From Escherichia coli (GTDB taxonomy: Bacteria > Pseudomonadota > Gammaproteobacteria > Enterobacterales > Enterobacteriaceae), in assembly GCF_013122565.1 (NCBI RefSeq), contig NZ_CP053258.1: a stretch of 64,000 nucleotides of DNA. One strand, written 5' to 3'. This document shows, one piece after another, positions 6,274-6,646 of the stretch. The notes under the pieces were generated by a model. The model had not been told where the DNA came from and did not search any database. It saw only the letters and a program-made list of their open reading frames with translations. Positions within the stretch are counted from its first letter, which is position 1; each line of letters starts with the position of its first letter. Position numbers and translations under genes: made by a program.

Positions 6274-6328
6274 TGCGTAAAATGCCGGATGCGGCGCGCC
6301 AGCATCGCATCCGGTAATAGTTAAATGA

Positions 6329-6613
6329 TTAATGGGAGGCAAGTTCCCGGAAAAAGGCAGGATTTTCTTTAATTGTGGCAAGTACTTTTGCAGCCAATCC
6401 CGTAGGATTTCTTCGCTTCGATTCCCAGCTTTTAATGGTATCCACACTGGTTCCCAGAGCTTTTGCCATCTCACTTTGCGAAACGTTGAGTTGCTCACGA
6501 ATAGCTTTAACATCCGCAATTTCGTAGCGGGTCACCCGTGCAGGTTCTTTTAAACCTTGTTTAATCTCGACAGCCTCTTCCAGAGAGGTTTTCAACTCAT
6601 CAAAAAAACTCAT
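6329..6613 (-). CDS. Small XRE-family HTH protein, HigA/antitoxin-like, no adjacent toxin gene
   Basis: ORF 6329..6625; GGAGG-like SD before internal ATG (MSFFDELK...); HTH segment LNVSQSEMAKALGTSVDTIKSWE; sits 34 bp downstream of nadR. Confidence 0.6.
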   Translation of the reverse strand: MSFFDELKTSLEEAVEIKQGLKEPARVTRYEIADVKAIREQLNVSQSEMAKALGTSVDTIKSWESKRRNPTGLAAKVLATIKENPAFFRELASH

Positions 6614-6646
6614 TTTATACCTCACCTTTGAGCAGTTTCGTCACGG

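Follow-up and report, generated by a model that had tools for sequence, protein, structure and literature searches.

nadS in the nadR-ettA spacer of Escherichia coli, an orphan antitoxin gene of the HigB2/HigA2 type

Introduction

Among the closest described systems to the gene considered here is HigB2-HigA2 of Vibrio cholerae (PDB 5jaa, 5j9i and 8a0x; PMC5416850, PMC11006873), in which the toxin gene precedes the antitoxin gene and for which the HigA2 operator has been mapped experimentally as TGTACGC-N5-GCGTACA (PMC11006873). In the spacer between nadR and ettA of Escherichia coli, a survey of adherent-invasive strains reported a toxin-antitoxin pair named parE-3/yiaG-2 (TA30), which is missing from K-12 and HS (PMC7232551). 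The first evidence for expression of the K-12 nadS gene has come from PIRT-seq (PMC12350097). Orphan antitoxins have been discussed in E. coli as possible anti-addiction factors (PMC10790755), and they have also been proposed in the literature as regulators.

In this study, a 64,000-nucleotide stretch of an E. coli genome (NZ_CP053258.1; hereafter the window) was analyzed, in which a sequence-only reading had noticed a lone helix-turn-helix (HTH) gene between nadR and ettA and had suggested that it may be a strain-specific insertion, a lone regulator or an antitoxin whose toxin was lost. The gene, its name and its annotation proved to be already known, and the locus is an ordinary decay intermediate of a mobile HigB2/HigA2-type module.

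Results and discussion

Identification of nadS as a HigA2-type antitoxin gene

The convergent genes ettA (555 aa; 4606..6273, plus strand) and nadR (6647..7879, minus strand; annotated with 410 aa in RefSeq relatives) bound a spacer at 6274-6646, the ettA stop ending at 6273 and the nadR stop at 6647. The NadR of the window has 99.5-99.8% amino acid identity to annotated NadR. The spacer contains a single minus-strand ORF, in the same orientation as nadR and directly downstream of it, which runs over 6329-6613 from an ATG (94 aa) or 6329-6625 from a GTG (98 aa). The presence of an HTH gene at this place, as first noticed, is borne out, and the ORF is not a product of chance: its translation matches the NCBIfam model NF041265 "NadS family protein" over residues 1-94 of 94 with 182.6 bits (E = 1.2e-54), against a curated cutoff of 60 bits, and Pfam PF01381 HTH_3 over residues 35-79 (E = 6.1e-10). 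Moreover, the protein is identical to WP_000007436.1, which is annotated as nadS in RefSeq both beside a toxin gene (strain 2020CK-00188) and without one (IAI39 and AR_0077). By these matches, the gene is identified as nadS, already named and covered by a curated family model.

Because the NF041265 model has 94 positions that align to residues 1-94, and homologues are also 94 aa long, the ATG at 6613 is taken as the real start of nadS, giving a coding sequence of 94 aa at 6329..6613 on the minus strand with its stop at 6329-6331. Thus, of the 94-98 aa originally given for the protein, the shorter form is retained and the GTG form is set aside by the length of the family model and of the homologues. 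The Shine-Dalgarno sequence that had been noticed is present (GGTGAGG, 6620-6626), and the distance from the nadR stop to the nadS ATG is 33 nt (6614-6646) instead of the 34 bp stated before. On the other side of the gene, a REP-like GC-rich hairpin (6285..6314) separates the stop codons of the converging genes ettA and nadS. Its RNA fold has an energy of -20.9 kcal/mol (z = -2.75), and AUUUUAC comes after it when the minus strand is read. The hairpin is probably a shared 3'-end or terminator element of ettA and nadS, and was not called by a simple terminator scan.

NadS consists of an N-terminal region of approximately 32 residues followed by a C-terminal XRE-type HTH domain, in which the HTH peptide LNVSQSEMAKALGTSVDTIKSWE is found. 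Its closest solved structure by sequence is V. cholerae HigA-2, with NadS residues 33-91 aligning to residues 42-100 of 5jaa_A (phmmer, E = 2.2e-6) and the HTH domains sharing 27-33% identity, and no sequence similarity was detected between the N-terminal region of NadS and the disordered N-terminal region of HigA2. The AlphaFold2 model of NadS, built from a 14-sequence alignment, is poor as a whole (pLDDT 58.5); the pLDDT below 50 for residues 1-32 is compatible with disorder, but has to be read with the poor quality of the entire model in mind. With this low-confidence model as the query, the top Foldseek matches were HigA2 chains, at weak E values of about 0.01-0.03. NadS is therefore classified, by sequence relationship, as a HigA2-type antitoxin with a predicted toxin-neutralizing function. 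The resemblance to HigA/MqsA-type antitoxins in the sequence-only reading holds for the HigA half, in the form of V. cholerae HigA2, and fails for MqsA: the score against the MqsA family (TIGR03830/PF15731) was 38 bits, below the cutoff of 61.8, with alignment only at the HTH end (model positions 67-126), and the MqsA zinc ribbon (CxxC...CxxC) is excluded because NadS has no cysteine at all. YiaG, the label used in an earlier paper, was likewise rejected (NF007481 PRK10072, 47.7 bits against a curated cutoff of 110). The NadS family itself carries a name that reflects only the position beside nadR in E. coli, and its antitoxin function is a predicted one.

Deletion of the toxin gene

The statement that nadS has no adjacent toxin ORF was confirmed by ORF inspection and by tblastn of four HigB2-like toxins against the 64-kb window, neither of which revealed a toxin. 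One tblastn match, at 10639-10902, was spurious (32% identity, inside an unrelated 214-aa ORF at 10405-11049). When the spacer was compared by BLAST with 5,426 complete E. coli genomes, the best matches carried 392 extra bases between nadR and nadS. In these relatives, the additional segment corresponds to a 110-aa protein annotated in RefSeq as "type II toxin-antitoxin system RelE/ParE family toxin". This HigB2-like toxin of E. coli (WP_000513551) is a homologue of HigB-2 from V. cholerae (E = 8e-17) and also matches Pfam PF06296. When intact, the toxin gene ends 1 nt ahead of the nadS start.

Alignment of the window with toxin-bearing E. coli, Escherichia sp. MOD1-EC7003 and K-12 revealed what is left of this gene. 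Its final 29 nt, encoding ...T K L L K G E V stop, persist at 6615..6643 on the minus strand and contain the nadS Shine-Dalgarno sequence. Between this remnant and the nadR stop lies a deletion joint of three bases, CCG on the minus strand (6644..6646), which are absent from both breakpoints of the toxin-bearing allele and common to the window and K-12. The rest of the toxin gene, together with the promoter and operator of the module, is missing from the window. Since the 3' end of the toxin gene is retained, the nadS gene of the window is concluded from this alignment to have been orphaned by a 392-bp deletion and not to have been inserted alone. The suggestion of an antitoxin that had lost its toxin is thereby upheld, given that the orthologous loci carry a HigB2-like toxin gene upstream and that the window keeps its 29-nt end.

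Another possibility raised initially, the arrival of a lone HTH gene as a small strain-specific insertion, with no toxin ever at this site, could draw on the GC content of nadS, which is below that of its neighbours (43.9% versus 51% for the window), and on the restriction of full-length nadS to about 13% of the E. coli genomes. The toxin remnant upstream of nadS, however, already refutes this reading, and the same joint is found in K-12. In addition, Escherichia sp. MOD1-EC7003 has nadR, then a different and larger toxin remnant of 102 nt, then an intact nadS, with a different joint at the same site (2893-3000 in the numbering of that locus), which implies that its toxin gene was removed by a separate or stepwise deletion. 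A lone insertion consequently has practically no probability left, and what looked strain-specific represents an intermediate stage in the decay of an islet, found in another Escherichia species as well.

Absence of the operator and probable expression from nadR

In nearly all members of the family, one or two copies of the palindrome GTGTAC-N3-GTACAC are located upstream of the toxin gene. The intact relatives of nadS thus resemble HigB2-HigA2 both in their toxin-first gene order and in an operator palindrome that lies upstream of the toxin and has a TGTAC/GTACA core, whereas the spacing differs, HigA2 having the single N5 site mentioned above and the NadS family an N3 site that often occurs in two copies. 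The window differs from HigB2-HigA2 in having no toxin, promoter or operator. The gene is not directly downstream of a HigB2-type toxin gene, an arrangement present in 674 E. coli genomes; no palindromic operator stands in a promoter of its own; and the two intact adjacent genes of a functional type II toxin-antitoxin system are not there, as the toxin has been deleted. The 64-kb window contains no match to GTGTAC-N3-GTACAC, even when two mismatches are allowed, and none to GTAC-N3-GTAC. A simple consensus scan from 6150 to 8100 found no sigma-70-like promoter, and within the spacer neither the promoter nor the terminator consensus gave a relevant hit. According to these simple scans for promoters and terminators, nadS is probably transcribed by read-through from nadR.

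Four states of one islet in E. coli

To describe the alleles of the nadR-ettA spacer, a BLAST census was taken over the 5,426 complete E. coli genomes. Full-length nadS, with the toxin present or not, was found in 729 genomes. Toxin and nadS together occur in 674 (12%), this being the number with any match to the toxin segment, with 673 matching over at least 80% of it. The window-type allele, full-length nadS without the toxin, accounts for about 55 genomes (1%), a figure obtained by subtraction (729 - 673) because the BLAST pieces flanking the 392-bp segment merge and block a direct count. About 4,243 genomes carry the K-12 type or another partial nadS, and about 454 have no match to the nadS segment; the HTH half is lost in about 78% of the genomes and the whole gene in about 8%. 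Across these genomes, the nadR-ettA spacer shows a single toxin-antitoxin islet in four visible stages of decay. In this comparison of the spacer, which had been proposed as a check, the full-length gene occurs in those 729 genomes and the K-12 copy is truncated.

The window-type state is exemplified by IAI39, CE10 and AR_0077, in which nadS is annotated as WP_000007436.1. K-12 is not empty at this site but contains a 55-aa nadS (WP_000007444.1) that is annotated by PGAP, is expressed according to the PIRT-seq report and has no entry in EcoCyc. It shares the identical toxin-deletion joint and the first 29 or so nadS codons with the window. In K-12 the gene is cut by a REP-like sequence that takes the place of the HTH domain, which is wholly lost, while the window gene keeps it. 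One genome that lacks nadS has a spacer of 120 bp with REP-like sequence only.

Several single loci deserve mention. E. coli HS-02 shows a further state of decay, with a frameshifted nadS beside a diverged (84% identity) and shortened toxin-like ORF annotated as hypothetical, at 531-1032 in the numbering of its locus. The orphan nadS of strains IAI39 and 746 begins with TTG in place of ATG, and in strain 746 the transposase gene of the IS3-like element IS1397 adjoins nadS at the expected ettA end.

Judged by its position, the parE-3/yiaG-2 (TA30) pair of adherent-invasive E. coli, which occupies the same chromosomal site, is the same module (PMC7232551). Its "ParE" and "YiaG" labels describe the module less precisely than does the relationship to HigB2/HigA2 established here, and the intermediate state of the window, with the toxin gone and the antitoxin intact, is undescribed in that survey.

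NadS in other bacteria and on plasmids

A survey of the family with one genome per species returned 80 loci. In 79 of them nadS is an intact 94-aa ORF, and in about 60-63 an intact HigB2-like toxin gene lies directly upstream, so that the homologues paired with a toxin that had been looked for elsewhere were indeed found. In about 17-20 of the 80 loci, the toxin gene is missing, truncated, frameshifted or internally deleted. Independent toxin losses were seen by hand in Leclercia and Pectobacterium brasiliense. In Leclercia, where two loci were compared (about 2800-3000 in their own numbering), the deletion spared the promoter and operator and left nadS directly behind them, whereas the operator was lost in the E. 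coli case. The orphan nadS of P. brasiliense is embedded in a type I-E CRISPR-Cas operon, 55 bp past the stop codon of cas3 and ahead of cse1. It is followed by two degenerate type I-E-like CRISPR repeats that resemble a mini-array within the cas operon; in the numbering of that locus the whole region covers 3001-3430 and the repeats about 3335-3430. In Cedecea davisae and Enterobacter hormaechei, in-frame internal deletions fuse the N- and C-terminal ends of the toxin, with nadS intact. The conservation of NadS is unusually high for an antitoxin, with identities of 74-91% in genomes that extend from Enterobacterales to the Halomonas group and Nitrosomonas. Of the 94 columns in an alignment of 14 genera, 60 are invariant.

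Only in Escherichia is nadR near nadS among the 80 loci, the sites in other genera being unrelated, and the name NadS is therefore positional; a functional nadS-nadR link was rejected on the ground that the adjacency is limited to this genus. These data also bear on the reading of nadS as a co-opted lone XRE-type transcription factor for other genes, possibly tied to nadR and NAD salvage in keeping with its name. Such a role would agree with the intact HTH domain, with the probable cotranscription of nadS and nadR suggested by their arrangement, and with the proposals in the literature that orphan antitoxins act as regulators. Yet nadR is near none of the other 79 species-representative loci, no GTGTAC-N3-GTACAC-like site exists within the 64-kb window and the HTH part is missing in most E. 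coli, which together make a co-opted regulator very unlikely.

Relatives of NadS at 80-90% identity were found in 137 plasmid records. Small mobilizable Col-type plasmids of E. coli, Klebsiella, Citrobacter, Serratia and others carry NadS-toxin pairs, an example being E. coli pKMi029_4. The plasmid NadS agrees with that of the window at 79 of 94 residues, including 27 of the first 32, and the plasmid and chromosomal toxins have 82 of 103 residues in common. In the phage collection, no close NadS relative was found, the best match being below 40% identity. The NadS-toxin pair is taken, from these comparisons and from the low GC content of nadS, to be a mobile module.

The plasmid-borne pairs open another reading, in which the orphan NadS is kept as an anti-addiction or immunity factor that, made from the nadR transcript, would neutralize in trans the HigB2-like toxins of incoming mobile elements. 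Related pairs at 80-90% identity on the Col-type plasmids, the agreement of the first 32 NadS residues and of the toxins, and the recurrence of an intact nadS beside a lost toxin (about 17-20 of the 80 loci, with three unrelated loci seen by hand) are in line with this role, as is the earlier discussion of orphan antitoxins as anti-addiction factors (PMC10790755). On the other hand, the HTH half or the whole gene has been lost so often in E. coli that full-length NadS is evidently not strongly maintained, and neutral decay is itself expected to remove the toxin before the antitoxin, since the reverse order would be lethal. Retention as an immunity factor is therefore considered plausible but unlikely, and the same holds for its corollary that NadS would spare its host post-segregational killing and thereby allow such plasmids to be lost. 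Somewhat less likely still is the idea that the orphan NadS, and possibly also the 55-aa K-12 stub, which retains only the presumed toxin-binding N-terminus, is produced from the nadR transcript and serves as a chromosomal "vaccine" against the highly conserved HigB2-like toxins of small Col-type plasmids, to whose post-segregational killing the host would then be immune.

A probable relic of a decaying module

The explanation that we favor, and regard as probable, is that nadS is the antitoxin half of a HigB2/HigA2-type module whose toxin was deleted, and that it is now a harmless relic without a selected role. A complete type II module of this kind was, on this reading, once located between nadR and ettA, arranged as a promoter with one or two GTGTAC-N3-GTACAC operators, the gene for the 110-aa toxin of the RelE/ParE superfamily (PF06296), a 1-nt gap and nadS. 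By analogy with V. cholerae HigA2, NadS would repress the operon by binding the operator through a dimer of its C-terminal HTH domain, and the N-terminal region would wrap and thereby neutralize the toxin, presumably a ribosome-dependent mRNase. The 392-bp deletion then took away the promoter and the operators together with the toxin gene, of which the final 29 nt were spared, and placed nadS, with its own ribosome-binding site kept, 33 nt behind nadR. From then on, NadS would be made, if at all, from the tail of the nadR message and without a local partner, and the window allele would stand one step ahead of the truncated (K-12) and absent alleles of most E. coli. As both toxin and operator are gone, NadS has neither of them nearby, within the 64 kb of the genome that the searches covered; a HigB2-like toxin gene or an operator may lie elsewhere in the genome or on a plasmid.

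Among six orphan nadS alleles of E. coli, two have a TTG start and one has an S2G substitution, which suggests a relaxed state, and the further loss of the HTH half or of the whole gene in most E. coli likewise favors a relic. At the same time, the frame is intact in all six full-length orphan alleles inspected and in the toxin-less loci of other species, and the orphan and toxin-linked proteins have the same amino acid sequence, which could reflect purifying selection rather than recency. In the window, even the nucleotide sequence of nadS does not differ from that of a toxin-linked allele. With no more than 12 variable sites among 12 sequences, a test for selection on the orphan alleles had too little power, and a wider comparison of Escherichia nadS gave 2 non-synonymous and 6 synonymous differences, in which the time spent with and without the toxin is inseparable.

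A gene often annotated as "NadS family protein" without context is hereby explained, a result of little weight beyond annotation. Recognizing that the name is positional and that the protein is a HigA2-type antitoxin guards against misreading it as a regulator of NAD metabolism. Moreover, the alleles of the spacer form a natural series for asking whether orphan antitoxins protect against plasmid addiction.

Other features of the window

Positions 1-20000 of the window have no close relative among the 5,426 complete E. coli genomes, the best being about 98.2% identical over 98% of this part. Clusters of REP/BIME-type elements, scored as naRNA4 by Rfam, are located at 19483-19706 and 27376-27458. 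A single tRNA-Leu(CAG) gene was found by ARAGORN and Rfam at 27598-27684, where K-12 presumably has three tandem tRNA copies, leuQPV.
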